Of a stretch of DNA of 21,247 nucleotides, positions 2,823-21,247 are shown piece by piece (the stretch's first letter is position 1; every line of letters starts with the position of its first letter). The translations under genes were made by a program, and so were the position numbers. Source of the stretch: a virus. The stretch lies in the IMG/VR virus record IMGVR_UViG_3300012148_000001, one strand, 5' to 3'. The notes under the pieces are model-generated. The model ran no database searches, had not been told where the DNA came from, and saw only the letters and a list, made by a program, of their open reading frames with translations.

Positions 2823-2826
2823 ATGA
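2743..2826 (+). CDS. Basic micro-ORF 2, 27 aa; duplicate of micro-ORF 1 with one extra Lys
   Basis: GGAGG lies 6-7 nt upstream. Its stop overlaps ATG 2823 as ATGA. Confidence 0.45.
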   Translation: MKKKRTSQSRKLAFKFASESFKRPEVL

Positions 2827-3458
2827 ACTATTTTGAAATATTCAACAAAGTTATGCTGGAGCTCAACTACAGACCCGTTGTGCTCTTTGAAAACATCTTT
2901 AAAACAGAGCACCTGCGCATTTTGGAGAACATAAACCGCGTAAACGTCGATGTTTGCACGGCCTTCAACTGGTCTTTCCTCGAAAAAAAGACGCTTATAA
3001 AGCTTGAGGCCGACGCATCCGAGGCCGAGCAGGGCATAGCGGGGCAGATAACAAAGGTCTATGACGGGAAAAACAGACTTACCTTCATACCCGACTACGA
3101 AAGCTTTTATCAAGGTTCGCCCCCTCAAAACTCTTACGGTTACTTCAACGACAAGATTCTTTTCGGCAAAGCCGCACACCCGCGCGAGTTAACGGTGTAT
3201 TATAACTCTTCACAGCTTGCACTGGACGTCGGGGGCAGCGCGAAGAATTCCATGGACGAAAAAGAAGACCGCTCAATCATCCCAATGCCTTACGCAGAGC
3301 AGATTCTCGTTTACGGGACGTGCATGAAGACCAAGGCAAACCCCGCATACCCCAAGTTTGGCTTTTGGAACACGCTTTACACCATGTCGCTTGTGAATCT
3401 GCGCGCAAAGTGCAGTCCCACGAGCGAAGACGCCCCAACTATTGTGTTGAATACGTGA
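2823..3458 (+). CDS. Virion structural protein, possibly head-tail adaptor or tail-tube-A-like (211 aa)
   Basis: Good ORF that is translationally coupled to the micro-ORFs. Size and position are typical of podovirus adaptor proteins. The family was not verified. Confidence 0.45.
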   Translation: MNYFEIFNKVMLELNYRPVVLFENIFKTEHLRILENINRVNVDVCTAFNWSFLEKKTLIKLEADASEAEQGIAGQITKVYDGKNRLTFIPDYESFYQGSPPQNSYGYFNDKILFGKAAHPRELTVYYNSSQLALDVGGSAKNSMDEKEDRSIIPMPYAEQILVYGTCMKTKANPAYPKFGFWNTLYTMSLVNLRAKCSPTSEDAPTIVLNT

Positions 3459-3705
3459 GACAGACGCGAGGCTCATAGGGCAGCTGCGTTGAGCAGGTGA
3501 CCGAGAGCCGAACAATTGATGGCGAGAAGTGAGTGGAAAGTGGTGTTTACACCAACTTTCGCCACGAACGCCGAGCCAAAAGACCGCAGGTCTTATAGGC
3601 GACGTTGCGAGCGGCCGTCGAACGCTAGTGAGACAGCGAGCGCACAAAACTCTGAAAGAGTTTTGCCAGGAGCCGAATGCGTGAGACATGCGTAAGCCAG
3701 GGGCT
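3456..3705 (-). repeat. Mosaic repeat block
   Basis: Its modules are shared with 10196-10340, 5774-5848 and 2466-2580. Confidence 0.85.
3515..3597 (-). repeat. 83-nt composite element (AAGACC hairpin + GGCGAAAG bulged hairpin), copy 1
   Basis: Shared sequence ...GGCGAGAAGTGAGTGGAAAGTGGTGTTTACACCAACTTTCGCC...CCGAGCCAAAAGACCGCAGGTCTTAT. Confidence 0.9.
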
Positions 3706-3830
3706 CAAAAAGCACAGCGTTTTTACATCAAACAAGGTGAAACTTGCGAACCGTAATTTAACGGATGCGGCCAATCTTAACGCTTTGCAGGCAAAGCAAA
3801 ATCCCCGCAACGGAGCACACCCGCAGTATC

Positions 3831-3858
3831 ACAAAAGTGCCCGCAACCGCGCGGACAC
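3831..3858 (-). terminator. Intrinsic terminator for the 3887..4366 gene
   Basis: The minus strand reads GTGTCCGC-gcggtt-GCGGGCAC followed by TTTTG. Confidence 0.6.
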
Positions 3859-3886
3859 CTGTGTCAAAATAAAATTCGGTTAAGCC

Positions 3887-4366
3887 TTATCCTAAAGTCC
3901 CTTTAGGCATCACCATAAAGAGCAAAAACATGTGTCTCACAAAGATTACAACGAAAATACAGAAAATAATCAACGTCAAAAACTTTTGCATGTCAGCAAA
4001 AACAACGTTTTTCTTGTCTTTTTTGAGGTCCTGCATCACTTCAAACTCTTTTTTGTAAGGCTGAATGGGGAGCATTTCCTCAATAAAATCAATAACTTTC
4101 GAGTATTTAACCTTGATTAGGAATTGATAAGAGTCAATGTTGAGCCACCACATAAGCGTTACAGTCAACCCGACAAGCGTAACCGTAAGTATAGCACCGT
4201 TTGAAGAGAAAAACATAATTAAAAGATAAGTAATAGCAAGCAAACTAAGGCTTAAAACAGTGTAAAACCTGTTCGTGGCAAAGTTTCTGTCGATAAATTT
4301 TTCCTTGGCGTCGATGTAGCTTTTATACTGCTCCGTTATCATACAGGCTTTTTCTTTCTCGTCCAT
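3887..4366 (-). CDS. Membrane protein: N-terminal helix, 2 adjacent TM segments, a soluble segment and a C-terminal TM (SLATT-like architecture; family unverified)
   Basis: The internal start MDEKEK has AAAAAGGAGAAATTG upstream. TM spans are FYTVLSLSLLAITYLLIMFF, ILTVTLVGLTVTLMWWL and FLTLIIFCIFVVIFV. Confidence 0.65.
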   Translation of the reverse strand: MDEKEKACMITEQYKSYIDAKEKFIDRNFATNRFYTVLSLSLLAITYLLIMFFSSNGAILTVTLVGLTVTLMWWLNIDSYQFLIKVKYSKVIDFIEEMLPIQPYKKEFEVMQDLKKDKKNVVFADMQKFLTLIIFCIFVVIFVRHMFLLFMVMPKGTLG

Positions 4367-4436
4367 CAATTTCTCCTTTTTATTAAATAAACCGTTTATT
4401 TCCGTTTGGCGGGCTGTCTCCCGAGCCTCCGGCACG

Positions 4437-4612
4437 CTGCCTGCGGGAGGGCTTACGCTTTTACCGCCTGTGCAATCAGAGATTACCCCCTTCGCTCGAG
4501 CGTGGGGTCCCTACTCATTAAACACTCGTGCGGCCGCTCGTCTTCTTGCCGAACTTTGTGAGGCTTAGAAGAGAGGGTGTCGCTTGCGGCGACGCAGCCG
4601 TTCAGGACTTTT
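4437..4612 (+). repeat. Mosaic repeat block
   Basis: It contains GGCTTACGC, CCGCCTGTGCAATCAGAGATT, GGGGTCCC and GTCGCTTGCGGCGAC modules. Confidence 0.8.
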
Positions 4613-4666
4613 ACCCATTGCTAACGCGATTATACAATATTTTTTCAATATAGGCAATTATAAAAA

Positions 4667-5239
4667 ATGTACAAATTCAGAAAGTTGAATCTCGACCCCC
4701 AAAAGCTTGACGCAGAGGCTATCGGGCACTATGTAGAGATTGTAAAATTAATAACAATATATCGTCACAATTTGTTTGACGACTTTGTAAAAACTCCCTT
4801 GAGCGAGCACGTTTTGTCGCTTGTACAAAGGACTTTCCCCTATTTTTGGGTCATACTCACGAAGGCGGACGGACGTTTTTGCGGATTCATCTATTTGTAT
4901 GATTTTGTGGGGGACGAAAAGTGCGCCCACAGCGCCTGCGTCACGGTTTGCCTGAAAAAATCCTTCTGGGGCAGGGCCGCGAGAGACATCGGCCGCGCCT
5001 TTACGGGTTTTTGTTTCGCGAAAATGGGGCTGAAAAAGCTTCGGGCGGAGTGTTTCGCCTCTAACACATTGACGGGCAAGGTTCTTTGCGATTTGAAGTT
5101 CAAAAAAGAGGGCGTTTTGAAGGGGGAAACGCTCGTAAACGGGCGGAGCGAAGACCTTGTGCTGTGGGGAATGCGTAAGCCGGTGCCAGGGTGGCAGCGC
5201 TGTGAAGCGGTGACACACAGCACTACGATGGCGACGTAG
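4667..5239 (+). CDS. GNAT family N-acetyltransferase (RimJ/RimL-like)
   Basis: The motif run WGRAARDIGRAFTGFCFAKMGLKKLRAECFASNTLTGKVLCDLKFKKEGVLKGETLVNG matches the GNAT core. The last ~22 codons read through repeat modules (GCGTAAGCC onward). Confidence 0.75.
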   Translation: MYKFRKLNLDPQKLDAEAIGHYVEIVKLITIYRHNLFDDFVKTPLSEHVLSLVQRTFPYFWVILTKADGRFCGFIYLYDFVGDEKCAHSACVTVCLKKSFWGRAARDIGRAFTGFCFAKMGLKKLRAECFASNTLTGKVLCDLKFKKEGVLKGETLVNGRSEDLVLWGMRKPVPGWQRCEAVTHSTTMAT

Positions 5240-5300
5240 GACTGCAGGGCAGTATGCCCGAAGCCCACAGGAGCCAAACAGCGATAGCTAGGGGTGAACC
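5173..5300 (-). repeat. Mosaic repeat block overlapping the GNAT 3' end
   Basis: It parallels 7296-7440 but lacks the 76-nt element. Confidence 0.85.
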
Positions 5301-5350
5301 CTACGCGCATCCCTCACCGCCACAAACTTTGTAAATCATCTATTAAACAT

Positions 5351-5379
5351 TTGCCACACTGAAAAACCCCTTATATAAT
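5351..5379 (+). promoter_or_regulatory. Sigma70-type promoter, TTGCCA-17 nt-TATAAT
   Basis: Read directly; it lies about 80 nt upstream of the 5459 micro-ORF. Confidence 0.6.
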
Positions 5380-5458
5380 AACAAAGGGTATGCCCTAATC
5401 TCCTGTCTTCTCTGAACAGACGAAAAATCTGAAAAGCAAAGAAGGGGGGTGATAAAAG

Positions 5459-5533
5459 TTGATTATCAGAATAACTGAAAGAGCGCTAGCAATAATCATT
5501 TTACTGATACTACTAGCACTCAAATTCAACTAA
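5459..5533 (+). CDS. Hydrophobic micro-peptide, 24 aa (TTG start; IIRITERALAIIILLILLALKFN)
   Basis: A G-rich SD (AAGGGGGG) lies 9 nt upstream. It is a paralogue of 8102..8170, and the differences between them are synonymous or conservative. Confidence 0.5.
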   Translation: MIIRITERALAIIILLILLALKFN

Positions 5534-5679
5534 CGGGCATTTAATGAGAGCGGCTTCAACGCTCTCGCCCACAACAAACAAGGCGAGGTTATACCGAGCC
5601 ATAGTTTGATGGGTGCAACCAGCCTTAACGCTTTGCAAACAAAGTGAGCAATAGCGGTAAGTGCGTGTTTGCCATTTAT

Positions 5680-5707
5680 ATTATACCAAAATGCACGAAA
5701 AATACAA
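5680..5707 (-). promoter_or_regulatory. Convergent promoter, TTGTAT-16 nt-TGgTATAAT, inside a conserved 41-bp element (5671-5711)
   Basis: The reverse complement reads TTGTATttttcgtgcattttGGTATAAT. The same element recurs at 8201-8241. Confidence 0.55.
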
Positions 5708-5878
5708 GGGTGCTCCAAAATTCTGTCACCCCTGCGAGCGCCTATGAGACCTGCGGTCTTTTGGCTCACGCATAGCTCCTGTCAAAACTCTGAAAGAGTT
5801 TTGTGCGCTCCTCCGCTTCGGTCTCCTCAGCTCTGTCGCAACGTCGCCATCGTAGTGCTGCGTGTCACCGGCTGTCTT

Positions 5879-5954
5879 GGAATACGAAGTGCTCGGAAAA
5901 TTCAACATTTCCCTCGCTCAGGAGCTTTGCTTTGCATCAGCTCCCTTCGATTCC
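5879..5954 (+). repeat. 76-nt element, copy 1 (GGAATACGAAG...CTTCGATTCC)
   Basis: Near-identical to the other copies. Confidence 0.95.
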
Positions 5955-6061
5955 GCTCACAGCGCCGTCACATTCGCACCGGTTCACACCTTTACCGCCT
6001 GTCAAATCAAAGATTTGTGCATTTCTTACGGCCGCTCCACGGCCTGCAGTCATAACGGCGG

Positions 6062-6145
6062 TCATAAGACCTACAGTCTTTTGGCTCGGCGTTCGCGGCG
6101 AAAGTTGGTGTAAACACCACTTTCCACTCACTTCTCGCCATTAAT
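6062..6145 (+). repeat. 83-nt composite element, copy 2
   Basis: Same element; the loop of the first hairpin differs (ctaca versus tgc). Confidence 0.9.
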
Positions 6146-6170
6146 GAGCTCTGCAGCCACCGGCTTTCTT

Positions 6171-6246
6171 GGAATACGAAGCGCTCGGAAAATTCAACAT
6201 TTCCCTTGCTCAGGAGCTTTGCTTTGCATCAGCTCCCTTCGATTCC
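6171..6246 (+). repeat. 76-nt element, copy 2
   Basis: Near-identical to the other copies. Confidence 0.95.
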
Positions 6247-6449
6247 GCTCACCGCCGCTGTCTTTCGAGCCCCTAGCTATCGCTATTGGCTCCTGTCAAA
6301 ACTCTGAAAGAGTTTTGTGCGCTCCTCCGCTTCGGTCTCCTCAGCTCTGTCGCAACGTCGCCTATCAATACGTACGGTCTTGCGGTCTTGCCAAGCAAGC
6401 CCTGCAGACCTACTTCTGGTTCACACCTTTAGAAAGGAAAATAAACAAA

Positions 6450-7301
6450 ATGACAAACGAAAAATCTTACCCGGGCTTTTTAGCCCAAGCATGGAGCGGT
6501 AAAATCAACACAGGACTTGACGCAAGCTGCGTTATGCTCCAGTGCGTAAACCGCGATTACCAGGCGGACGCCGACAAAGGCGTCGAAGCCATAAACATCA
6601 TCGCCCCGAAAAAGGTCAAGGCGTCAAACTATGCAGGCACAATCAGCAGTTACGAGACGGTCGACACCGAAGGGCAGAAGTTAAAGCTCGACCAGAGCGT
6701 GTATTTCGGCTTTCAAGTGCCCGACATCGAGGAAGCGCAGTCAAACACAAGCATCATAGACACCCTGACCGCGCAGGCGAAAAAATCCATCGAAGAATCA
6801 ATCGACGCCTACCTTTTCGGCCACTACACAGAGGCCGCAGCCGCCAATGTCACAGGCAGCGCGGAAGACCCTGTTTTGCTTGACAGCGCAAGCGTTTACG
6901 CCAAATTTGTCGCGCTTGCCAAAAAGTTAAAACTCTCGGGCGCTATGACCTCGAGCGATAAGGGATGGGTAGTCGTTCACCCTGACGTAGAGGAGCTTTT
7001 GCTGCTTTCCGACGAATTCAGCGCGCCGTCCGCCACGGGCGACAATACCCTCTCTACAGGCTCTATAGGCAGGATTGCAGGCCTTGACGTCTTTGTCAGC
7101 AGCAATGTGGGCAAGGTTTCGGACAAATACGTAGTGCTTGCGGGTACGCAAAGGGCTATCACGTATGCGTCACAGCTTACGAAGATAGAGACAATCCGCT
7201 CGCAGTCGTCGTTTAACTCGATTGTCCGCGGCCTTTATACCTTCGGTGCGCTGACCATGAACCCCGAGGCAATGGCCGTCATGACTTGTAGAACCGCGTA
7301 A
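6450..7301 (+). CDS. Major capsid protein (HK97-fold-like, 283 aa)
   Basis: Start MTNEKSYPGF follows TTAGAAAGGAAAATAAACAAA. The protein is A/S/T/G-rich, and its C-terminal region (ITYASQLTKIETIRSQSSFNSIVRGLYTFGALTMNPEAMAVM) is typical of the Phage_capsid family. The upstream 306 nt of the track ORF is repeat mosaic. Confidence 0.7.
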   Translation: MTNEKSYPGFLAQAWSGKINTGLDASCVMLQCVNRDYQADADKGVEAINIIAPKKVKASNYAGTISSYETVDTEGQKLKLDQSVYFGFQVPDIEEAQSNTSIIDTLTAQAKKSIEESIDAYLFGHYTEAAAANVTGSAEDPVLLDSASVYAKFVALAKKLKLSGAMTSSDKGWVVVHPDVEELLLLSDEFSAPSATGDNTLSTGSIGRIAGLDVFVSSNVGKVSDKYVVLAGTQRAITYASQLTKIETIRSQSSFNSIVRGLYTFGALTMNPEAMAVMTCRTA

Positions 7302-7330
7302 GCCGGTGCTAGAGTGACGGCGCTGTGAGC

Positions 7331-7406
7331 GGAATCGAAGGGAGCTGATGCAAAGCAAAGCTCCTGAGCGAGGGAAATGTTGAATTTTCCGAGCGCTTCG
7401 TATTCC
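7331..7406 (-). repeat. 76-nt element, copy 3 (inverted)
   Basis: Its reverse complement differs from copy 2 by one base. Confidence 0.95.
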
Positions 7407-7716
7407 AAGACAGGCGGTGCCACGCAGCACTACGATAGCGACAGCTCTTCTTGTTTTCGAGGGTGAAACCCGAGAATTACAAGGGAGGGTACCCGGACGG
7501 GTGCGTAGGATGTTGAGACGGCAGTCGAAACACCCACAGGAGCTGACATCCGTTTAGGGCAGGGGTGAGCCTGAACGGCTGCGTCGTCGCAAGCGACACC
7601 CTCCCTTGTACGGCTCCTATGTCGCCTACAAGAAGAGCTGCAGCAGGCGTAAAGGGTGAACTCATTGATGGCCGCCGTTACGACCGCAGGGAGTAGGGAC
7701 CCCACGCGGCCAAGGA

Positions 7717-7890: not shown

Positions 7891-7942
7891 ACTGCGTAAG
7901 CCGGTGCGTCAGCGGAATCGAAGAGAAACCAAAACCTCTTGC

Positions 7943-7972
7943 TTGCACATTTCCCGCGTCATGCGCTATAAT
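7943..7972 (+). promoter_or_regulatory. Sigma70-type promoter, TTGCAC-18 nt-TATAAT
   Basis: Read directly; it lies about 130 nt upstream of the 8102 micro-ORF. Confidence 0.55.
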
Positions 7973-8101
7973 ACAGCAGACAAGTACAGCTTACCTGTCT
8001 GACGAGAACAACAAAACTGAATAATACGGGCCACCCGCAATCCTCGCACCTTCAGCACAACATTTTTGGATGTTAGTCAGCTGAAAGGAGGTGAGAAACA
8101 C

Positions 8102-8170
8102 ATGATGATTACTGAAAAAGCGCTATTGCTTATCATTTTGATAATCATAGCGCTTAAATTTTCACATTAG
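8102..8170 (+). CDS. Hydrophobic micro-peptide, 22 aa (MMITEKALLLIILIIIALKFSH)
   Basis: A strong SD (GAAAGGAGGTGA) lies 7 nt upstream. It is a paralogue of 5459..5533. Confidence 0.55.
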   Translation: MMITEKALLLIILIIIALKFSH

Positions 8171-8209
8171 GGTGTTAAAAGGGTTGTTAGCGCAACCCTG
8201 CCCATTTAC

Positions 8210-8237
8210 ATTATACCAAAATGCACGAAAAATACAA
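8210..8237 (-). promoter_or_regulatory. Convergent promoter, TTGTAT-16 nt-TGgTATAAT (second copy)
   Basis: It lies within the conserved element 8201-8241, and its -10 box starts about 40 nt beyond the micro-ORF stop. Confidence 0.55.
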
Positions 8238-8351
8238 GGGGCGGAGCCGTTGAGGCTTCGGACACACTACCGTCACCCATTTCCCACACTTTGTCAAGAG
8301 CTGCCCCACATTCGGGCACAAAAACAGTTTACACAATTACGGAGAAAAACT

Positions 8352-8999
8352 ATGCAAAATATAATTACAAACGCGCCCCCTGCGGCTACAGGGCAGGGGG
8401 CGGCCGATATAAACCAGGCTCAAGGGCTCGGCGCGCTGAACCCGTCGCCGCAGGCCAACCTTTCAGAGCGCGAAAAGGGCCTTATCGAATACTGCAAAAA
8501 CATCGACAATCTCGTGGATTTCGGGATTATACAACCTCAAGAAGGACAAGCGATGAAAATAAATCTGATGAAAGAACTGTCACAACAGCCCGAGGTTTCT
8601 ACGGGTAATGAGGCACAAAGCCTTGTACAGAGCGGTTTTATGCAGTTTTTGAAAGAGCAGCCGAAGTTCTTTGAAAACAGGGACAATTTGAAGCAATACC
8701 TTGAAATTGTCGGCGTAGAGCTTGATAAAGATGATTTCGCGAAGATTGCGCAGTTGGTCGAAGACCTCGAGAATGCTGCGGTGTCGCGCTTTGCGGATAA
8801 ATCGCTTCACGGAGAGGCGCTAAAGGAGTTTAACGAGCAGGCGAAAGAGCGCCTCAAGACGCTGTCATCCAGCGTCGCGGGCGGCAGACTCGAGGCTCAA
8901 AAGTACTTTACTCCGGAGGAAATCGGCAAAATGTCGCCGCAGGAGTTCAGGCGAAACGAGCATATTATTAACGAGCAGATGAAAAAAGGCCGATTTTAA
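8352..8999 (+). CDS. Scaffolding-like protein (215 aa, helical and acidic)
   Basis: The internal start MQNIITN has GGAGAAAAACT upstream. Composition is coiled-coil-like and the gene neighbours the capsid gene. The product is inference. Confidence 0.45.
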   Translation: MQNIITNAPPAATGQGAADINQAQGLGALNPSPQANLSEREKGLIEYCKNIDNLVDFGIIQPQEGQAMKINLMKELSQQPEVSTGNEAQSLVQSGFMQFLKEQPKFFENRDNLKQYLEIVGVELDKDDFAKIAQLVEDLENAAVSRFADKSLHGEALKEFNEQAKERLKTLSSSVAGGRLEAQKYFTPEEIGKMSPQEFRRNEHIINEQMKKGRF

Positions 9000-9002
9000 A
9001 AC

Positions 9003-9420
9003 GCGATAGCTAGGGGCTCGAAAGACAGCGGCGGTCAGCCGGTGGCTGCAGAGCTCATTAATGGCGAGAAGTGAGTGGAAAGTGGTGTTTACACCAACTT
9101 TCGCCGCGAACGCCGAGCCAAAAGACTGTAGGTCTTATGACCGCCGTTACGACCGCAGGGAGTGAACAAATCTTTGATTTGCCAGGCGGTGAATGCGTGA
9201 GCCAGAAGTAGGTCTTTAGGGCTTGCGTCGTCGCAAGCGACACCCTCCCTTGTAATTCTCGGGCATAGCCCTCGAAAACAAGAAGAGCTGAAGCAAGACC
9301 GTAAGACCGTACGTATTGATAGGCGACGTAAGAGTTTGCTCGCAAACTCCACAGGAGCTGAATGCGTGAGCCAGACGTAGGACTGCAGTGCAGTATGCCC
9401 GAAGCTCACAGGAGCCAAAG
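9003..9420 (-). repeat. Mosaic repeat block
   Basis: Its modules are shared with 6062-6430, 10150-10380 and 15494-15990. Confidence 0.9.
9057..9140 (-). repeat. 83-nt composite element, copy 3
   Basis: Same element, inverted. Confidence 0.9.
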
Positions 9421-9449
9421 AGGCAGTCAGGAGAAGAACTAAACCATAA

Positions 9450-9566
9450 CTACTGTTTGGCTTTTTTAGTTTTGGATTCGGCTCCTACTGATGTCAAAGA
9501 TTTGCATGCGAGTGTAACGGCTACAGCCAAGAATACCGCAGTTGCTATATGTATAGGCTCAATCAT
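9450..9566 (-). CDS. Small membrane peptide, 38 aa (MIEPIHIATAVFLAVAVTLACKSLTSVGAESKTKKAKQ)
   Basis: AAAAAGGAGCTAAA precedes the ATG. It has a single TM segment and a basic tail. It is not in the ORF track because it is under 60 aa. Confidence 0.5.
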   Translation of the reverse strand: MIEPIHIATAVFLAVAVTLACKSLTSVGAESKTKKAKQ

Positions 9567-9642
9567 TTTAGCTCCTTTTTATTGAAATGAAGATGCATAT
9601 CAAGTTTTTTGTCAGTACTGTATAAAGACCTTAGAAGTATAA

Positions 9643-9885
9643 TTATGAAGTAGCGCGACCGAGCAGAGAGTGAAAGTCGAGGCGTTGAGCCTTGACTGTA
9701 ACTCGTTTATCGCGAGGGAGAAAGAACCACCCCAGTATTACGTATAAAGTTTTAACGCTGCTGTTTTGCATAAACGACAAACCCACAACCCCGCCGACTA
9801 AAACAGTCAACACGGCCATGAGGGATTGGCGCAGGGATATCAGACTGTCGACTTTCATTTTTGTGTACTCTAATTCTTTATTCAT
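9643..9885 (-). CDS. Small 2-TM membrane protein (80 aa, holin-like topology)
   Basis: Start MNKELEYTK. TM spans are LMAVLTVLVGGVVGLSF and TLYVILGWFFL. The SD is weak. Confidence 0.45.
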   Translation of the reverse strand: MNKELEYTKMKVDSLISLRQSLMAVLTVLVGGVVGLSFMQNSSVKTLYVILGWFFLPRDKRVTVKAQRLDFHSLLGRATS

Positions 9886-9945
9886 CCTGTAATTATACAC
9901 CTTGTGCATGGGCGGGGCAACAGTCATTTAAAGTAAAAAGCGAAA

Positions 9946-9980
9946 AGATTAATTTACATAACATATATTATCAATATAGA
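9946..9980. promoter_or_regulatory. Overlapping divergent promoters
   Basis: The minus strand reads TTGATA-17 nt-TAATCT. The plus strand reads TTTACA-16 nt-TATAGA. Confidence 0.4.
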
Positions 9981-10026
9981 ACTATTCGTAAGTTTTGAAG
10001 TCTGAAAGAACAATTTGAGAGGTAAA

Positions 10027-10200
10027 ATGTTTCCAGACATTTTCAAAAATCACGTTATTTTCAATAAAATGATATATGCCATATATCAAAATATAAAGGG
10101 TAAGGTTGTGTTAACAACTCTTTCCGAAGTACCAAGAGGGCTTACGCATGGCTCCTGTGGGCTTCGGGCATACTGCCCTGCAGTCCTGCGTCGCCTATAA
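10027..10200 (+). CDS. Doubtful small ORF (57 aa) whose 3' half is repeat mosaic
   Basis: GAGAGG lies 4 nt upstream of the ATG. The C-terminal 20 codons are modules seen elsewhere. Confidence 0.25.
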   Translation: MFPDIFKNHVIFNKMIYAIYQNIKGKVVLTTLSEVPRGLTHGSCGLRAYCPAVLRRL

Positions 10201-10278: not shown

Positions 10279-10410
10279 TGTTCGGCTCTCGGTCAGCCGC
10301 TGACCGCCGCTGCCCTATGAGCCTCACCCCTGGCTATCGCATGGCTCCTGTGGAGTTTGCAAGCAAACTCTTACGTCGCCATCGTAGTGCTGCGTGCCGC
10401 CGGCTGTCTT

Positions 10411-10486
10411 GGAATACGAAGCACTCGGAAAATTCAACATTTCCCTCGCTCAGGAGCTTTGCTTTGCATCAGCTCCCTTCGATTCC
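10411..10486 (+). repeat. 76-nt element, copy 4
   Basis: Near-identical to the other copies. Confidence 0.95.
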
Positions 10487-10564
10487 GCTCACCGCCGCCG
10501 TCTTTCCCCCCATTCCAACGTGACATTTAGTCACCTTGTAACGGGTCCCTGCACCGGCTTACGC

Positions 10565-10595: not shown

Positions 10596-10710
10596 GCATA
10601 CTAGCCGAAGCATTAACAACATGACTATTGTAGCAAATTCCGCCAAAATTAAAAGGTGTTATTAAGAAACCTTAACAAAACTTCGTACAGACAACAATAC
10701 AGGACATTTT

Positions 10711-11109
10711 ATGACCCGAAAACACATCACACAACAGCAAAAACGCTTTTTGAACGAATATGCCGACACTTTAAATCTGGAAAAATCCGCGCGCGCGGCG
10801 GGATACAGGAGTACAAACGTTCTTTCCCAAGTGAGGGCAATGCTTTTAAAGCCGCCTTTTAAACAGGAATTGGAAAAGATAATCTCCGAGCGCGTTTTCT
10901 GCCTCGACATCCCGCGTTCGTACATCGTCAAAAAGTACCTTGAGCTTATAGAATACGCATCTGCGGCCGATGAGGGGGGCATGCAAGACCCTGCGCTCGC
11001 GCTTAGAGCGCTTGACGGGCTTTGCAAAAATTTTCCGAGGGAGGAAAACGCGCCTGTAGAAGATGTTTTGTCTATGAGAATCGAGGGGCTGAACCATCAA
11101 AAGATATAG
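10711..11109 (+). CDS. Terminase small subunit
   Basis: The N-terminal QQQKRFLNEYADTLNLEKSARAAGYRS matches the Terminase_2 HTH signature. Confidence 0.75.
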   Translation: MTRKHITQQQKRFLNEYADTLNLEKSARAAGYRSTNVLSQVRAMLLKPPFKQELEKIISERVFCLDIPRSYIVKKYLELIEYASAADEGGMQDPALALRALDGLCKNFPREENAPVEDVLSMRIEGLNHQKI

Positions 11110-11151
11110 AGCACGGCTCCTTTTACGGACAAAGCATGGCCGTTCAAACAA

Positions 11152-11517
11152 CTAGGCGCTGTCTCTCAGCTCTTTTTCCACCGCATCATCAATCAGGGCG
11201 TTTATGCTCTTCCCCAGCCTCGCAGCCTTTTTGGCAAGCCTGTAGTGTTTTTCGGAACTTGTACGGTAGGTTATATTGCCCTTAAAATCAGCCAAATTCA
11301 AAGGTTCGGGAATCTCAAAACCGCCCTCTAAACTCGTCAAAATGTATGCCCCGAGCGCTTCTTTGAGGTTGCTAAACGCCTCTTCCGGAGTGTCTCCGCA
11401 CGTCATGTTCTCTTCAAGTTCGTCAATGCTGCCCAAATAGCACTTGTCCGGCTCGCTCCAACTCACACGGTAGCTCCAGGGCAGCTTTAAGTAGTATTCC
11501 GTATTTTTTTCAGCCAT
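11152..11517 (-). CDS. hicB: HicB family antitoxin
   Basis: It has an RNase-H-like N-domain (YLGSIDELEENMTCGDTPEEAFSNLKEALGAYI) plus a C-terminal RHH-like segment (SSEKHYRLAKKAARLGKSINALIDDAV). The SD is GGAGGG. Confidence 0.8.
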   Translation of the reverse strand: MAEKNTEYYLKLPWSYRVSWSEPDKCYLGSIDELEENMTCGDTPEEAFSNLKEALGAYILTSLEGGFEIPEPLNLADFKGNITYRTSSEKHYRLAKKAARLGKSINALIDDAVEKELRDSA

Positions 11518-11518
11518 T

Positions 11519-11761
11519 TTAGTGTCCCTCCGCTTTTAAAGCCTTTTGTACTTTTTGAATAATGTACGGTTTGACCGGGTTTTGGGTTAATACAACCGTT
11601 ATCGAATCTCTGTTAATTTTCCTGTAAGTCAGATGTGAGCTCCCGCCTGCAGGCCCCCGGGCGCTGTAACCGAGCGTTGATAATATTTTCCGCACTTCGC
11701 TTGGTTTTATGTCAGACTTTCCGCTTAATATCTTTTGAGCTGATTTATCCGATTTACCCAT
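11519..11761 (-). CDS. hicA: HicA family toxin (mRNA interferase-like)
   Basis: The segment SEVRKILSTLGYSARGPAGGSSHLTY...ITVVLTQNPVKPYIIQKV fits the HicA fold pattern. The gene lies directly upstream of hicB. Confidence 0.65.
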   Translation of the reverse strand: MGKSDKSAQKILSGKSDIKPSEVRKILSTLGYSARGPAGGSSHLTYRKINRDSITVVLTQNPVKPYIIQKVQKALKAEGH

Positions 11762-11767
11762 ATTGTT

Positions 11768-11796
11768 ATGATATCATTTTTGCTATCATATGTCAA
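11768..11796 (-). promoter_or_regulatory. hicAB promoter, TTGACA-17 nt-TATCAT, with an ATGATA/TATCAT inverted repeat
   Basis: Read on the minus strand. The -10 box ends 6 nt before the hicA ATG, which suggests a leaderless or near-leaderless mRNA. Confidence 0.55.
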
Positions 11797-12258
11797 GTAT
11801 GTTATACGGCGTCAACGCCCTTTGAGCCGCCGCAGCAAATCGTACAAAACACCCCCCTGCGGGGAATAAATGTAGTGATTGGAGCGGCTTTAGCGAATGT
11901 AAGTGCGTTTGCTTGTATGAGTGAAGACAAAAGAGCTCGAGATATTTGCTTGGGGGCTCGCGTTAAACGGGCGCAGTACGGCAAAGCCGTCCTTATCGCC
12001 CTTCGCTCGCCTCCGCTTTTTGAATCAACAAAAAACGACGAGTTCAAACAGGGACCCCACGCTCGAGCAAGGCGTAGGCGAAGAATGAGCCGTACGCTTG
12101 TAAAATAGGCGAAGCCTATTCGTACGAAGGGGGAAAGATGAGCTTAGCTGCTCCTGAACGTAATGACCCTGACCCGCCGGTTTTTGGTTCTTTTTAGACA
12201 AAAAGAACAAGGGCTTAAAGATTGAACGATTCAAAGTCACGTTCTTTTTAAGTATTCA

Positions 12259-12392
12259 CCGCCTGTGCAATCAGAGATTGCTTCTCTCGCTGTCTCACTA
12301 ACGTTCGACGGCCGCTCGTAACGGCGGTCATCAATGAGCTCTGCAGCCACCGGCTAACCGCCGCTGTCTTTCGAGCCCCTAGCTATCGCTAT
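12259..12392 (+). repeat. Mosaic repeat block upstream of the portal gene
   Basis: Inverted partner of 2466-2612. It contains an empty site for the 76-nt element. Confidence 0.85.
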
Positions 12393-12407
12393 TAGAAAGG
12401 AAGATAA

Positions 12408-14027
12408 ATGACTACACAAGAAAAATTCCACGGTCTGCCGCAGAAAATCGGCAAACTTTTCGAAAAATTCAACACCGAAAGAAACTCCCAGCTCGGCGAC
12501 ATAAAAGCGCTTAGGGAGAGAATCTACGGCATAAAAGACCACAAAAACGACACGTGGGGCTCCGACCTGATGCTCCCCGACCTCTACGAACAGTGCCAAA
12601 CCCTTAAGGCGCACGTGTTAGACAGCATTTACTCAAGCGCCCAATCGCTTTTCGACGTGTCGGCACAAAACGGCGAAACCACGCGCGAGGCAAGCGCGCA
12701 GAAGGCCATGCTCGTTGAAAATCTCGAAAAAATGAAAATCGGCGCAAAACTCGAGAAAATGGTCGAAGACCTCATAGAAACAGGCGAATGCACCCTCTTT
12801 GTCGGCTGGGAAACGCGCTACAGAAAGCACAGACGCGCCGCGAGCCTCGAAGAGCGTCTCGAAAGCGGCAAAAGCTTTGTGACACAAGACAAATTGGTCT
12901 ATGACGGCGTAACGGTGAAAACCATTGCCGCACAAGACTTCGTTTTCGACAGCGCCAGAAGCGCCAACTGGGACGGCTGCGCGAAGATTTTCCGCACATA
13001 TTTGGACATCGAGGACATAAAAGCCGATTCCACAAACGTTTACCTGACACAAGAAGTCGTAGAAGCCCTCAAGCAAAACATTTCACGCTTTGAAAAAGGC
13101 GAAGACACAGACGGCATACGTCACGGGCAGGTCGAAATACTTGAATACTGGGGCGACATCGAACTCGACGACGGCCAAGGCGGCACAAGATTTTTGAGGA
13201 ATCAATTCGTCGTTTGCGCAGGCCGCACAGCCATTTTGCGCTTCGAAGACAACCCTTTCGTAACCGCGCCCTTCATCTACGCGAATCTCATCGAAAACCC
13301 CGAAACAAAAAGGGGAATCTCGCCCCTGAAACCTGTCTTGGCGCTCAACACAGTCGCTTCGAGGATATTAAACAATCAGCTCGACGCGTACTCCTTAATT
13401 ATAAACCCGCCGTATCTTGCTCCCAAAGGGGCTTTTAAGGGTCAGCAAAAGGTAAGTCCCGGCAAAATCGTGGAATACGATTCGTCGCTGCTGCCTCAAA
13501 GCCCCACACCGCTTAACTTTAGCTCGGCGCTTTGCGGATGGGATTTTATAAATTATTTTAAGGGCTCAATTGAAAGCACGACGGGCATTTACAGGACAAT
13601 GGCGGGCGACAACGCAGGCACAGCACGCACCGCAACTGAAATGATGTACAGCGCAAACGGCCAAAACGCGCGCTTGAATATGGTTATAAACGCCGTGAAC
13701 CGCAAGCTCATCGTCCCCATGGTCGAAAAAGTGGCGGAAACCGTGGCCAATTTTAAATACGGTGAAGAAACAATCATAGTGCGCCTTGACGACAAGCAAG
13801 TTCCCGTAACGGTCGATGACACAATACGCGGCGGCGACTACGTTTACAGGTACTCCGACAAAAAAGCGACTTTAGAGCGCAAATTCCGTTCCAGAGAGGT
13901 GTCCGAGACCATCGCCGCATTTTCGAAAATCCCCGGATTTTCCGAGAAAATCAACTGGAACGAGTGTTTCAAGTTCGCCCTCGAACAGCTCGGGGTGGAA
14001 AATTCGCAGAAATACTTGGAAACATAG
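12408..14027 (+). CDS. Portal protein
   Basis: The 539-aa ORF lies directly upstream of the large terminase and uses the late-gene SD TTAGAAAGGAAG. Size and position are typical. The family was not verified. Confidence 0.65.
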   Translation: MTTQEKFHGLPQKIGKLFEKFNTERNSQLGDIKALRERIYGIKDHKNDTWGSDLMLPDLYEQCQTLKAHVLDSIYSSAQSLFDVSAQNGETTREASAQKAMLVENLEKMKIGAKLEKMVEDLIETGECTLFVGWETRYRKHRRAASLEERLESGKSFVTQDKLVYDGVTVKTIAAQDFVFDSARSANWDGCAKIFRTYLDIEDIKADSTNVYLTQEVVEALKQNISRFEKGEDTDGIRHGQVEILEYWGDIELDDGQGGTRFLRNQFVVCAGRTAILRFEDNPFVTAPFIYANLIENPETKRGISPLKPVLALNTVASRILNNQLDAYSLIINPPYLAPKGAFKGQQKVSPGKIVEYDSSLLPQSPTPLNFSSALCGWDFINYFKGSIESTTGIYRTMAGDNAGTARTATEMMYSANGQNARLNMVINAVNRKLIVPMVEKVAETVANFKYGEETIIVRLDDKQVPVTVDDTIRGGDYVYRYSDKKATLERKFRSREVSETIAAFSKIPGFSEKINWNECFKFALEQLGVENSQKYLET

Positions 14028-14130: not shown

Positions 14131-15447
14131 ATGAACTATAAATTACTTAAATCTCAAAAAAAATTCCTGGAAATTCCACATAATTACAGCCTCGATGTTT
14201 GCATTTATCAGGGCGGTTTTGGTTCGGGAAAAACCTTTGCGGGGTCGCTTCTCGGGGTTTTGCTGTGCCTTAAATACCCCAAAATTATCGGCCTTGTGGG
14301 CGCACAGACCTATGCGCTCGTCCGAGACACAACTCTGACAAGCTATTTCGAGCATCTTTCGAACATGGGCTTCAAAGAGGGCAGGGAGTTTTCTTTCAAC
14401 AAATCCGAAAAAATACTCGAGCTAAAAAACGGCTCCAGAGTTCTGTTTCGGCACTTTGACGAGCCCAACAAACTCAAAAGTCTGAATCTGGGCTTCGCTG
14501 AAATCGAAGAAATGTCCGATGTTCCCGAAGAGACCTTCAAAATGCTTCTGGGGCGCATGAGACAGACTGTTCAGGCCGACTGGAAAGACTTTACGTACAG
14601 AATATTCGGGCATACAAACCCCGAAAACCGCAGGGGGTGGATATATAACACTTTTGTAAAAATCAAAAGGCCTAATTACAGGCTTATTATAGCGCCTTCA
14701 ACCGAGAACATCCACTTGCCGAAAGACTTTTGCAAGGATTTGAAGCGGGCATACGACGAAAAGTATTATAAAATGAACGTTTTGGGCGAATTTGAAGAAG
14801 GTGATAACGCGCTTGTAGTAAGGGATTTTACGGAAGAGAACATCCGTAAACTCAATTATAACGAGGGTCTTGATTTGCACATTACCTGTGATTTCAACGT
14901 AGACCCTATGTGCTGGCTTATCGCGCATAAAGACGACAGCAAAGTGTACTTTATAGACGAATTTGCGCTTGAAAACGCAACCACATCAAGTGCTTGCGAC
15001 GAGTTCATCCGCCGATACCCTTGCCACAAGGGACGAATCGTCATTAACGGAGACGCGAGCGGCGACAACAGGAGCTGCCAGAGCGAGTATACGAACTATG
15101 TCATCATGCGAAACAGGCTTGGCGCGCACGGTTACAGGGATGTAAAGTTCGACATCCGCACTTTCAATCCGCCGATACGCAACAGAATCGCGGCTTTTAA
15201 CGCCATGGTCAAAAACTCGGAAGGCGAAAGGCGGCTGTTCGTTGACCCGCAGTGCGAAAAACTTTTGTACAACTTTGAGAACTTGAAATATCTGGAAGGC
15301 AGCTCCAGACTTGACTTGCCGAGCTATTACCAAATCAAAAGCCTGCCCGGCACGAAATTTCTCGGCCACCCTTTTGACGCCGCAAGTTACCTTGTAGAGT
15401 ACTATTTCCCGATTGTCTGCGCGGGCAGCGGGTTTGAGGGGGTTTAG
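14131..15447 (+). CDS. terL: Terminase large subunit
   Basis: It carries Walker A (GGFGSGKTF), Walker B-like (LGFAEIEE) and nuclease acidic motifs (ITCDFNVDP, INGDASGDN, HPFDAASY). Confidence 0.9.
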   Translation: MNYKLLKSQKKFLEIPHNYSLDVCIYQGGFGSGKTFAGSLLGVLLCLKYPKIIGLVGAQTYALVRDTTLTSYFEHLSNMGFKEGREFSFNKSEKILELKNGSRVLFRHFDEPNKLKSLNLGFAEIEEMSDVPEETFKMLLGRMRQTVQADWKDFTYRIFGHTNPENRRGWIYNTFVKIKRPNYRLIIAPSTENIHLPKDFCKDLKRAYDEKYYKMNVLGEFEEGDNALVVRDFTEENIRKLNYNEGLDLHITCDFNVDPMCWLIAHKDDSKVYFIDEFALENATTSSACDEFIRRYPCHKGRIVINGDASGDNRSCQSEYTNYVIMRNRLGAHGYRDVKFDIRTFNPPIRNRIAAFNAMVKNSEGERRLFVDPQCEKLLYNFENLKYLEGSSRLDLPSYYQIKSLPGTKFLGHPFDAASYLVEYYFPIVCAGSGFEGV

Positions 15448-15449
15448 GC

Positions 15450-15990
15450 ATCCTGTTTGTCAAATCAAAGATTACCCCATTTGCAGCGAGCAACAGCTCG
15501 TCTTGTTTTCGAGGGCTATGCCCGAGAATTACAAGGGAGGGTGCCGTTTTCGGCCAAATTAAAATGGCGTAGCCATTATTCCCCGCGGGGGGCTTGTCGT
15601 ATGGCTTTGCGTCTGGCTTACGCTTTCGGCTCCTGTGGGTGTCTCAACTACCGTCTCAACATCCTACGTCGCCATCGTAGTGCTGCGTGCCGCCGACTGT
15701 CTTGGAATACGAAGCGCTCGGAAAATTCAACATTTCCCTTGCTCAGGAGCTTTGCTTTGCATCAACTCCCTTCGATTCCGCTCGCCGCCGCCGTCTTCCC
15801 CCCCCATTCCAACGTGACATTTAGTCACCTTGTAACGGGTCCCTGCACCGGCTTACGCATCCCGCCTGTCAAATCAAAGATTTGTTCACTCCCTACGGCC
15901 GCTCCACGGCCTGCGGTCGTAACGGCGGCTATCAATACGTACGGTCTTACGTGCTTGCTCATCGCAAGCCCTAAAGACCTACTTCTGGCC
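15450..15990 (+). repeat. Mosaic repeat block between terL and the 16012 gene
   Basis: Its modules are shared with 10343-10565, 5995-6060 and 9169-9330. Confidence 0.9.
15704..15779 (+). repeat. 76-nt element, copy 5
   Basis: Near-identical to the other copies (3 substitutions). Confidence 0.95.
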
Positions 15991-17120: not shown

Positions 17121-17276
17121 TGCCGACAGGCGAAAGCGCCTGAGAGTACTACAAAGACAGGATGCCGGGTATTGGAAAAATGCCGACAGGCGAAAGAGGC
17201 GTAGAGTACTGCAAAGACAGGGTATCAAAGATGGGTGCCGATTGCTGCAGGGTATCAAAGTATCGGAAAAATGACG
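17121..17276 (+). repeat. Direct repeats with a 60-bp period, plus shorter repeats
   Basis: TGCCGACAGGCGAAAG..AGAGTACT.CAAAGACAG occurs at 17121-17160 and 17181-17220 (35/40 identical). CAGGGTATCAAAG occurs twice and GGAAAAATG.CG occurs twice. A related motif lies at 18845-18880. Confidence 0.8.
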
Positions 17277-17452
17277 GGGGGTGAGAGAGTTTCAAATATG
17301 TGTCTGCGCGGCAATTGTGGAAATTGCTGTTGTACGCAGTAAAATGTTCAGTTGACGCCAAGACGGGAGCCGTTTTGAGCAGACACGCCGGAGAAGCGGG
17401 AAAGGGACTGATGCAGGGTCGCCAGGCGAAGTACAGCCGCAGCAACGGGCGG

Positions 17453-17501
17453 AAGCTCCCGAGCGAAGGAAATGTTGAATTTTCCGAGCGCTTCGTATTC
17501 C
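17453..17501 (-). repeat. 76-nt element, truncated copy (about 49 nt)
   Basis: It matches the GGAAATGTTGAATTTTCCGAGCGCTTCGTATTCC half. Confidence 0.85.
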
Positions 17502-17522
17502 AAGACGCGCGGATACACGGCA

Positions 17523-17552
17523 AAAAGGCAATAAAAATGTGCCTTTTATAAA
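17523..17552 (+). terminator. Weak hairpin/terminator candidate
   Basis: AAAAGGCA-ataaaaatg-TGCCTTTT followed by ATAAAT; the stem is AT-rich. Confidence 0.3.
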
Positions 17553-17650
17553 TAAAAAGCACAAATCAACTACTTTTTAAGTATAGCATTATTTCAAAAT
17601 AGTGCAATATGTTATTTTGTTGCGGGTTATTATTTTATTTTGCTGTGTTT
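17550..17650. other. AT-rich tract, candidate DNA-unwinding element
   Basis: Visibly AT-rich, and located between the direct repeats and the iterons. Confidence 0.4.
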
Positions 17651-18057: not shown

Positions 18058-18837
18058 ATGAATAATTACGGAATAACGGGGCAAAACAGCGAGAGTGTGC
18101 AGCAAACGCACGCAGTTACGCAGTTTGAGCTTACAAAGGCGCTTTACACATCGGATATACTGGCGAAAAGCGACCTTACTTGTTCGGCAAAGCTTTTTCT
18201 ATACGCGCTTTGCACGCATTATAACCCCAAGAATAAGACTATGTTTCCTTCTCAGGCTACGGTTGCTAAGAAGCTCGGTATAAGCGAAAAGTCGGCGGAG
18301 AGGGCTGTAAAAGAGCTTAAGGGCAAGGGTTTGATAGATTATGAAACCAGAAAAGTCAACCATTACCGCTTTAGCGAGAAGTTTTTCTCGCTGATAAATT
18401 TGAATCTCGCTGATATCCTGTCTTTCAAGGCGCAGGGGAAGGGTTCGGACAAAATGTCCGTGGGGGTCCGTCAAAATGTCTGTTGTGATGTCCGTCAAAA
18501 TGTCGGTCTAACAAATAATACTGAACAAAAAAATAAAAGGGATTTTTCTTTTTTTCAAAAAGGGCGAAGTGCTAAGGCGGCGCTGCAAGACGGGGGGAAG
18601 GCTGTGCCGTCCGTTGAGGAGACAAGGGAGCTTTTGAAGGAGCGCGAACGCATAAGGGAAGAGGGTTTTAACCCTTTGGATTATTCTTATGAGGACGCGT
18701 ACGTGTGGATAAAGTCGATGCCTGCTTTTTGGCTTAAAAAGTCAAAGATAGCAAGGAGTTTGATTGAAAAGTATAAGTTTGAGGATTTTTTGTATACGCT
18801 GGATTTTGAGATAGAGAATTTTCGGGAAGAGGCGTGA
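18058..18837 (+). CDS. Replication initiator-like winged-helix protein
   Basis: The segment LTCSAKLFLYALCTHYNPKNKTMFPSQATVAKKLGISEKSAERAVKELKGKGLI is the typical HTH_36/DnaD-like initiator N-domain. The SD is AAAGGA. Confidence 0.7.
   Translation: MNNYGITGQNSESVQQTHAVTQFELTKALYTSDILAKSDLTCSAKLFLYALCTHYNPKNKTMFPSQATVAKKLGISEKSAERAVKELKGKGLIDYETRKVNHYRFSEKFFSLINLNLADILSFKAQGKGSDKMSVGVRQNVCCDVRQNVGLTNNTEQKNKRDFSFFQKGRSAKAALQDGGKAVPSVEETRELLKERERIREEGFNPLDYSYEDAYVWIKSMPAFWLKKSKIARSLIEKYKFEDFLYTLDFEIENFREEA
18447..18504 (+). repeat. Three ..CAAAATGTC repeats inside rep
   Basis: GGACAAAATGTC is at 18447-18458 and CGTCAAAATGTC is at 18469-18480 and 18493-18504, spaced 22 and 24 bp. Confidence 0.85.
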
Positions 18838-20601: not shown

Positions 20602-21096
20602 ATGAAGAGAATAATTTTACACTGGAGCGCGGGCACTTACAAGCCAAACGCGCACGAAAAAGCTTGCTATCACTACCTTATAGACGACAAGGGCAAATGC
20701 CACGCGGGCAAATACGCGCCTGAAGACAATCTGGACTGCCGCGACGGCTTATACGCAGCGCACACAGGAGGTCAAAACACAGGCTCTATCGGCGTTTGCA
20801 TGTGTGGCATGCACGGTTACCGCTCGCCCATCGAAGTTGGCGATTTTCCGTTGACCAAAATCCAAGCGGAGAGTACTTTTAAGATTTGCGCGCTTTTGTG
20901 CAGAAAGTACGAAATTCCTATAGACAAAGACCACGTGAAAACGCACAGGGAAGTGGGTTTAGAGCTGCCGCGAAGCTCAAGCGCAGGGAAAATAGACATA
21001 ACCTACCTGCCCTTTGAGCCAAACCTTTACCCTGACGAGATTAGCGAGTACATAAGAAATAAAGTGCGTTGGTATTACAAACGCTTAGGCTACTGA
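20602..21096 (+). CDS. N-acetylmuramoyl-L-alanine amidase (Amidase_2/PGRP, T7-lysozyme-like) endolysin
   Basis: It carries ILHWSAG, YHYLID, AAHTGGQNTGSIGV and VKTHREV motifs. Confidence 0.85.
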   Translation: MKRIILHWSAGTYKPNAHEKACYHYLIDDKGKCHAGKYAPEDNLDCRDGLYAAHTGGQNTGSIGVCMCGMHGYRSPIEVGDFPLTKIQAESTFKICALLCRKYEIPIDKDHVKTHREVGLELPRSSSAGKIDITYLPFEPNLYPDEISEYIRNKVRWYYKRLGY

Positions 21097-21119: not shown

Positions 21120-21247
21120 ATGAAAGATTTTTTCTACAACCTGCAAGGCGGCATAAACACAAGCCGCACAAAGATTGCTCTCGGTTCAGACGTTAAAAAG
21201 CTGTACTGGGACGATGCTTCCAATGTCGAAATATTGAAAAACCAAGG
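21120..21247 (+). CDS. 5' end of the junction-spanning tail-like structural gene (continues as 2..1516; 506 aa in total)
   Basis: ATG at 21120 is preceded by AAGGAAACA. The frame maps onto base 2 of the window and onto the 110..1516 track ORF. Confidence 0.75.
   Translation, partial: MKDFFYNLQGGINTSRTKIALGSDVKKLYWDDASNVEILKNQ
21125..21247. repeat. Terminal overlap copy 2 (= 1-123)
   Basis: Identical to the window start. The reading frame of the junction gene is continuous across it. Confidence 0.95.

Follow-up and report, generated by a model that had tools for sequence, protein, structure and literature searches.

The stretch of DNA analysed here (the window, 21,247 nt) repeats its bases 1–123 exactly at its other end and is therefore a circle of 21,124 bp, a podovirus-like phage genome. 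It encodes a major capsid protein (MCP), an SU10-type portal, large and small terminase subunits, a replication initiator, an amidase, a GNAT acetyltransferase, a HicA/HicB-like pair and an 8xMP membrane protein. No tRNA or tmRNA was found by ARAGORN, and no match, near or distant, was obtained in INPHARED. Using the gene calls of the identical source contig, 8,166 of 21,124 nt (38.7%) are non-coding, and this DNA is packed with short repeats in both orientations, at least 60 direct families and 108 inverted pairs. One of these repeats is an 84-nt element that is present at some sites and absent from other copies of the same sites (Table 1).

The 84-nt element and its hairpin contexts

Read in the sense of copy A, the element runs TGTCTTGGAAT...ATTCCGC; in an excised form, ATTCCGC would be joined to TGTCTTGG. 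The five full copies in the window are 97.6–100% identical to copy B, whereas their flanks fall into several families. Folding predicts a three-way junction, in which P1 is GGAAT(A)CGAAG / CTTCGATTCC with a bulged A, P2 carries an invariant tip, CGGAAAATTCAACATTTCC, and P3 is a variable hairpin (GGAGCT...AGCTCC). A small internal loop (TCTT opposite GC) joins P1 to an outer stem, which is the carrier hairpin or context, and the empty sites fold as the same outer hairpin closed by a short loop.

Table 1. Features of the window and their positions
Feature	Position	Strand	Covariance-model score (bits)	Remarks
Terminal repeat	1-123 and 21125-21247			Exact
Major capsid protein	6450-7301
SU10-type portal	12408-14027
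Large terminase subunit	14131-15447
Small terminase subunit	10711-11109
Replication initiator	18058-18837
Amidase	20602-21096
GNAT acetyltransferase	4667-5239
Promoter-like site	5351-5379			Strong
Gene with homologue in L001	8352-8999
Copy A	5873-5956	+	110	Caps a context-2 hairpin (about 5845-5990)
Copy B	6165-6248	+	110.1	Caps the context-1 hairpin (about 6140-6285)
Copy C	10405-10488	+	111.1	Left arm of context-2 type, right arm resembling context 1
Copy D	15698-15781	+		Inside the 467-nt module block
Copy E	7329-7412	-	110.3	Caps a context-2 hairpin (7296-7436) that begins inside the MCP stop codon region
Copy F	17394-17505	-	39	About 38 nt extra in the P3 loop; decayed 3' end; lies in ORF 17149-17562
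Stump of the element	7910-7923	-		14 nt, CAGCGGAATCGAAG, next to a GCGTAAGCCGGTGCG arm
Context 1, uninterrupted	12348-12383			CACCGGCT-a-ACCGCCGCTGTCTTTCGAGCCCCTAGC; junction CACCGGCT-a-ACCGCC at 12348-12362
Context 1, inverted copy	9009-9044			g in place of a
Context 1, split by the element	6158-6260
Empty context-1 hairpin	12329-12393	+		Loop UAACC in the fold of 12325-12395
Empty context-1 hairpin, inverted copy	8999-9063	-		GGCGGT-CAGC-CGGTGG at 9030-9045
Diverged empty relative of the context-1 hairpin	2475-2540	-
Empty context-2 hairpin	5173-5229	-		GCGCT-GTGAA-GCGGTGAC; overlaps the 3' end of the GNAT ORF
Empty context-3 hairpin	3470-3510	-		GGTCACCTGCT-C-AACGCAGCTG
Empty context-3 hairpin, diverged arms	10283-10323	+		GGTCAGCCGCT-G-ACCGCCGCTG; related filled version at L033 6631-6714
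Module block	15503-15969			467 nt; cleanly absent from strains L003 and L033
Segment inverted in L003	9378-10092			Between 44-nt inverted repeats
Module family shared with the bacterial chromosome	15478-15580			95% identity
Module family shared with the bacterial chromosome	9241-9290			100% over 50 nt

The original prediction held that a 76-nt element forms an insertion/deletion unit of about 87 nt, since two independent contexts exist with and without it. Both contexts were confirmed. Context 1 is uninterrupted at two places and split at a third, with flank identities of 25/26 nt on the left and 37/37 nt on the right, far beyond chance. Context 2, GCGTAAGCCGGTGC...CAGCACTACGAT, is intact at one place and split at that of copy E. 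Nevertheless, the inserted unit is 84 nt, with 1–2 nt of junction ambiguity, and the 76 nt is its P1-to-P1 core, GGAAT...ATTCC. The GCGG on both sides of the insert is a real 4-nt junction repeat in context 2, but it is CAGC/GCTG in context 1 and only 1–3 nt in other contexts. The two contexts are also not fully independent, since both are REP-like hairpins whose arms are similar near the junction (CACCGSCT to the left and A(M)CGC to the right).

To examine where the element sits, it was removed in silico from all 24 distinct flank contexts found in the phage strains, the bacterial chromosome and the MAGs described below. The junction fell in the apical loop of the predicted hairpin in 20 of the 24, compared with 160 of 600 (27%) random non-coding positions of the window (binomial p about 1e-8). 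The contexts fall into about six families and are not 24 independent trials, yet every family behaves this way, and the folds of filled and empty sites agree. Written as TGTCTTGGAWT...AWTCCGC, the element lies directly after a C of the loop in every context, and is followed by T in phage and host and by A in the MAGs. The short repeats at the junctions (GCGG, CAGC/GCTG, CT/GCT or a single C; none in the MAG copies) vary in length and sequence. A fixed target-site duplication is not supported; the repeats could be microhomology, although they do not clearly fit simple microhomology either.

Filled and empty sites in related phages and bacteria

The exact capsid protein is encoded on four assemblies, and a metagenome scan for the core of the element found more contigs of the same phage group. 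The 18–19-mer scans of metagenomes and genomes returned mostly chance hits, and only loci confirmed by BLAST or the covariance model were used; the 21-mer core is absent from IMG/VR. Genes are 94–99% identical between these strains, while the intergenic DNA differs by gain, loss, replacement and inversion of modules. The decisive case lies downstream of the GNAT gene. The window reads GGCAGCGCT-GTGAA-GCGGTGACAC, whereas the strain contig L003 reads GGCAGCGCTG-GTGA-(GCGGAATCG...CCAAGACAG)-GCGGTGACAC, with identical sequence extending more than 30 nt to the left and more than 90 nt to the right. An orthologous site is thus polymorphic, although whether the element was inserted or excised could not be determined. 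A third context, empty in the window at the first of the two context-3 hairpins, is filled in L067 (12527–12610). Next to the arm sequence of the 14-nt stump, L003, L004 and L069 carry a full copy.

Caps with other bodies were also found. At the loop position of copy E, L003 and L004, which are independent assemblies, hold a different insert of about 190 nt that begins (A)GCGGAAT and ends CCAAGACAG, the same termini. L003 4639–4754 holds a 115-nt "type B" cap with the same termini and the same bulged-A P1 but a different body, and the 190-nt form is type B with a further module nested in it. A type C occurs in the host.

All the sequences are short-read metagenome assemblies, and the arm-element-arm blocks (150–320 nt) exceed the assembler's k-mer (k=141), so that paths through paralogous copies could be mis-joined. 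That the filled/empty differences are assembly artefacts is nevertheless very unlikely. Filled and empty forms coexist inside the single circular window contig, and the filled L003 copy carries the locus-specific arm variant CTGCCACCCTGGCACC of the window's empty site. Moreover, independent ENA and JGI assemblies agree: L003 matches L004 downstream of MCP, L003 matches L033 for the 467-nt absence, and six host contigs share the same filled site.

The element was also found outside the phage. One metagenome hit (L068) lies on a bacterial chromosome recovered from the same ENA sample series and the same JGI project as the phage, with contigs that reach 295 kb and encode SMC, ScpA/B, GAPDH and aminoacyl-tRNA synthetases. 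Chromosome loci (L157–L166) carry the element at 96–98% identity in the leader of a pseudopilin gene (filled at L157 10774–10864), and a paralogous pseudopilin leader in L164 has the same hairpin empty (CCCCCT-C-AACGG; CAGTTCGGCCCCCT-C-AACGGAGCCC). The same intergenic regions contain at least seven other module families of the phage's non-coding DNA, two of which are listed in Table 1. The only named relatives of the pseudopilin family are Candidatus Gastranaerophilus and "Cyanobacteria bacterium SIG30". The bacterium is therefore probably Melainabacteria-like, and probably the host of this uncultured phage, as inferred from co-occurrence and shared repeats. In about 52 kb of unique host DNA there is one copy of the element, against six in 21 kb of phage.

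A scan of species-representative genomes found diverged copies in two unnamed, Melainabacteria-like MAGs, one of which encodes a protein 78% identical to one from "Cyanobacteria bacterium SIG31". Further copies are in two rumen MAGs and in a metagenome contig (L047) whose name suggests a termite gut. In the MAGs the element sits in a quite different REP-like hairpin, GA[TTCCGAA]-ACAAG-[TTCGGAA]TGACA. Eight instances have the 5-nt loop and others carry inserts of 37 to 92 nt in it, of which three are 92-nt inserts (the 87-nt element) placed between AC and AAG. The outer arms covary between copies (ATTCCGAA/TTCGGAAT, ATGCTGAA/TTCAGCAT, CCCTGAA/TTCAGGG). Filled and empty pairs therefore exist in five kinds of hairpin, and the termini are the same in every context.

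Alternatively, the element could spread and disappear without dedicated transposition, through homologous recombination or gene conversion between paralogous hairpins and slipped-strand deletion between the short direct repeats brought together by the hairpin. Phage carrier arms are similar near the junction, copies are nearly identical, as concerted evolution would produce, and junction repeats of 2–4 nt flank a strong hairpin, the classic substrate for slippage. The flanks are mosaic, since copies C and D combine a context-2 left arm with a right arm like context 1, and L069 joins a context-1 left arm to a different right flank. Repeats mediate other rearrangements as well, namely the clean loss of the 467-nt block and of a 73-nt block with 1–3 nt of junction overlap, and the inversion seen in L003. 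Gene conversion alone could indeed produce the within-phage pairs. However, recombination needs flanking homology and cannot seed the same unit, with the same termini, in hairpins whose arms share no homology, such as the phage contexts, the host pseudopilin leader (CAGTTCGGCCCCCT) and the MAG hairpins (GATTCCGAAAC). Different caps with identical termini also occupy the same loop position in different strains. As the sole explanation, this pathway is considered unlikely, although recombination between copies clearly also shapes the region.

The only more distant relative found, L001, shares 42% capsid, 50% portal and 51% amidase identity. Its capsid gene is followed after 62 nt by the homologue of window gene 8352–8999, and it has no repeat families, whereas the same gap in the window is 1,050 nt. 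The non-coding mosaic is therefore an acquisition of this lineage.

Structural conservation and function

A covariance model built from 20 copies recovers all of them and the divergent caps. On 27 distinct sequences, 87% of cells pair, against 75% after shuffling and 33–62% when partners are slid. Changes on both sides are shown by 17 of 25 pairs, which is reached by 0 of 500 shuffles, and in P1, 6 of 10 pairs are compensatory. The alignment was fitted to the model, which favours the structure; nevertheless, the slid controls and the independent single-sequence folds agree with it.

Such conservation, with a P2 tip invariant from the phage to distant MAGs, would also fit a selected function, for instance an RNA domain in leaders and trailers (a terminator, mRNA stabiliser or processing site) or a protein-binding DNA cruciform, in which filled and empty sites are alternative versions of a functional hairpin. 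Copies A and B lie between the promoter-like site and the MCP start, copy E starts at the MCP stop, and host copies lie in pseudopilin leaders. The universal A.C mismatch in P2 would be a G.U pair on the opposite strand. However, G.U and A.C counts are symmetric, 17 against 16, so no strand is favoured. No Rfam 15 family matches at the gathering threshold or at E<=1 in the window, none matches the element at E<=1 in four MAG loci, and no hammerhead-like CUGAUGA...GAAA core in register was seen by eye. Copies occur in both orientations, decayed and truncated copies exist, turnover is high between strains that are 95–99% identical in genes, and L001 does without any such element. A coding explanation for copy F was rejected, because strain indels there are not multiples of three. 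That the junction is mainly a functional module is thus doubtful, although this would not exclude mobility.

Inferred mobility and relation to known systems

Our analysis favours, with moderate confidence, a non-autonomous, structure-defined mobile DNA module that is found inserted in the apical loop of a pre-existing REP-like hairpin and extends it as a cap. The module would belong to a set of interspersed hairpin-repeat families of the Melainabacteria-like probable host, which have colonised the intergenic DNA of the phage and now make up about 39% of its genome. No mobilising enzyme was identified. No recognisable transposase, integrase or HUH protein was found by Pfam or PHROGs among 20 phage ORFs, PDB sequence searches of two unknown proteins were empty, the ORFs neighbouring the MAG copies share no family, and gene tables of about 70 kb of host loci, short of the complete host genome, list no transposase. 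The activity is therefore inferred to be encoded in trans by the host, recognising the conserved termini and the P2 tip and acting on extruded or single-stranded hairpins. Candidate types are HUH/Y1 (RAYT or IS200/IS605-like) or an IS110/IS1111-like recombinase. Homologous recombination between copies would then shuffle flanks, delete blocks and invert segments.

A more speculative possibility, which we consider improbable at present, is that the element and its sister caps, sharing the termini ...TGTCTTGRAAT / ATTCCGC..., are substrates of an undescribed insertion system that recognises the tip of an extruded hairpin rather than a sequence, and works in both a Melainabacteria-like host and its phage. 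The phage may exploit the resulting host-like mosaic, for example as recombination handles, as 5'/3' pairing elements around its capsid gene, or as decoys against a host defence that senses foreign DNA or RNA.

With short elements, many natural filled/empty alleles and several cap types, the finding offers a tractable system that could address how REP/BIME-like and nested small repeats move, which is unsettled for most such families. No description of this element or of such a phage was found in the literature, and a search for the P2 sequence returned no paper.

The carrier hairpins may resemble GTAG-tagged REPs or REPINs (PMC3733652, PMC3116915). They and neighbouring units begin with CGTAG or CGTAAG, units of the form CGTARG-hairpin-CACAGGAGCC recur, and CGTAAG (19 times in non-coding and 5 times in coding DNA) and CAGGAGC are strongly enriched in the non-coding DNA. 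The repeats are likewise short, intergenic, hairpin-forming and clustered into mosaics in both orientations, and a carrier hairpin made of two inverted arms resembles a REPIN. The carrier hairpins, and not the element, fit the description of a 20–40-nt imperfect palindrome; the element is a three-way junction inside the loop of the REP-like hairpin and has no such tag. No RAYT was found among the phage ORFs.

The closest behaviour appears to be that of the small dispersed repeats (SDR) of Nostoc and related cyanobacteria (Elhai et al. 2008, Genome Res 18:1484), the sister lineage of the probable host. These seem to be very small non-coding repeats, nested inside other repeats, with a secondary structure supported by compensatory changes and a mobility inferred from presence and absence between related genomes. 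SDRs are probably 21–27 nt long; the present unit is 84–115 nt with a three-way junction.

Insertion sequences that target REP hairpins (IS1397/ISKpn1; IS1111-group elements such as ISPa11 and ISPpu9/10; Tobes and Pareja 2006, PMC1525189) also insert at a defined position in a repeated extragenic hairpin, and the IS110/IS1111 group leaves little or no duplication. Here the left flank and the element end both read CT in the phage and host copies, but not in the MAG copies. Those elements are about 1.3–1.5 kb and encode their own transposase, whereas this unit has no ORF, and no parent IS with the same ends was found, without a search of an IS database.

Bacterial MITEs (Correia/NEMIS, RUP, ERIC, Nezha) and mycobacteriophage MPME elements are similarly non-autonomous, multi-copy and 50–500 nt long, with inverted-repeat arms that fold into a hairpin and a presence that varies between strains. 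In the present element the P1 arms, GGAATACGAAG / CTTCGATTCC, form a 10-bp imperfect inverted repeat that lies 6 nt inside one terminus and 2 nt inside the other (TGTCTT... and ...GC). There is no consistent target-site duplication, and the target appears to be defined by structure, a hairpin tip.

Finally, intergenic DNA swollen by families of short palindromic repeats, in contrast to a compact relative lacking them (here L001), is known from sponge mitochondrial RHEs (PMC2800124), Volvox organelle palindromes (PMC2670323) and pithovirus MITEs (PMC10664404). Those are eukaryotic organelles and giant viruses, whereas here the genome is that of a 21-kb tailed phage that shares the repeat families with its probable bacterial host.

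Rearrangement of DNA between strains

Gain or loss of the three-way-junction element is not the only difference between the phage strains. Other blocks of 467, 73 and 69 nt are also clean insertion/deletion units, with junction overlaps of 1-5 nt. The 467-nt block is absent from strains L003 and L033, the 73-nt hairpin module from strains L004 and L069, and the 69-nt block from L030. A HicB/HicA-like pair located between the small terminase and portal genes is in a stretch that L003 lacks, where the corresponding interval of the window is represented by only 496 nt. In addition, a segment carrying a 94-aa ORF is inverted in L003, and there the interval between the same 44-nt inverted repeats also holds about 480 nt of extra DNA with two small ORFs. 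The inversion could result from recombination between the repeats; alternatively, it could be a switch.

Duplicated units were also observed within the window. A perfect tandem duplication of a 79-nt unit lies just upstream of, and runs into, the start of an ORF. Two paralogous cassettes were identified, each of which has a strong sigma-70-like promoter match, followed by a 22-24-aa hydrophobic peptide ORF, and ends with a 39-nt repeat.

Coordinates of rearranged segments, duplicated cassettes and nested or inverted repeats in the phage window and in other loci
Sequence	Position	Strand	Feature
Window	2669-2827		Perfect tandem duplication, units 2669-2747 and 2749-2827
Window	2823-3458		ORF whose start is reached by the tandem duplication
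Window	5351-5710		First cassette
Window	5351-5379		Promoter match, TTGCCA-17-TATAAT
Window	about 5459-5533		Hydrophobic peptide ORF, LIIRITERALAIIILLILLALKFN
Window	5672-5710		39-nt repeat of the first cassette
Window	5873-7412		Capsid gene bracketed by inverted copies of the element
Window	6066-6138		73-nt hairpin module
Window	7944-8240		Second cassette
Window	7944-7972		Promoter match, TGCACA-17-TATAAT
Window	about 8102-8170		Hydrophobic peptide ORF, MMITEKALLLIILIIIALKFSH, preceded by AAGGAGGTG
Window	8202-8240		39-nt repeat of the second cassette
Window	9374-9417 and 10149-10192		Inverted repeats flanking the inverted segment
Window	9378-10092		Segment inverted in L003
Window	9643-9927	-	94-aa ORF
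Window	9653-9721		69-nt block
Window	11112-12251		Interval corresponding to 496 nt in L003
Window	11152-11761	-	HicB/HicA-like pair
Window	15503-15969		467-nt block
L157 (probable host chromosome)	10676-10930		Repeat modules in a pseudopilin gene
L114 (MAG Batch1_idba_bin.956)	13-162		Copy with an inverted P2 loop segment
L127 (MAG locus)	2974-7601		Six-ORF block bracketed by inverted copies of the element
L077 (metagenome contig)	3531-3622		Hairpin with the same P2 tip
L081 (metagenome contig)	3077-3151		Hairpin with the same P2 tip

Repeat modules in pseudopilin genes of the probable host

In the probable host, repeat modules lie inside the called N-termini of pseudopilin genes (proteins P0002 and P0012-P0061). 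For instance, P0002 reads MKRRAFTL, followed by 74 codons of modules including the three-way junction, and then RAFTLAEVLL. The 222-nt insert is flanked by an 11-nt direct repeat, GCGTTTACGCT. Other paralogues share a repeat-encoded extension that itself exists with and without a nested block of about 50 codons.

Arrangement of the element and occurrence of its P2 tip

The capsid gene in the phage and a six-ORF block in a MAG locus are each bracketed by inverted copies of the element, where the upstream copy is co-oriented with the genes and the downstream copy is opposite. In a read-through transcript the two copies would be complementary. In one MAG copy (L114), the apical P2 loop segment GGAAAATTCAACATTTCC is inverted relative to its flanks, compared with all other copies. 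Two AT-rich metagenome contigs carry a hairpin with the same P2 tip (GGGAAAATTCAACATTTCCC) inside a GTGGAT...ATCCAC stem, and therefore the tip motif may be more widespread than the element. L001 (IMG/VR UViG 3300010163_003601), the only distant relative found, is compact, with intergenic gaps of about 40-140 nt, and has no repeat families.
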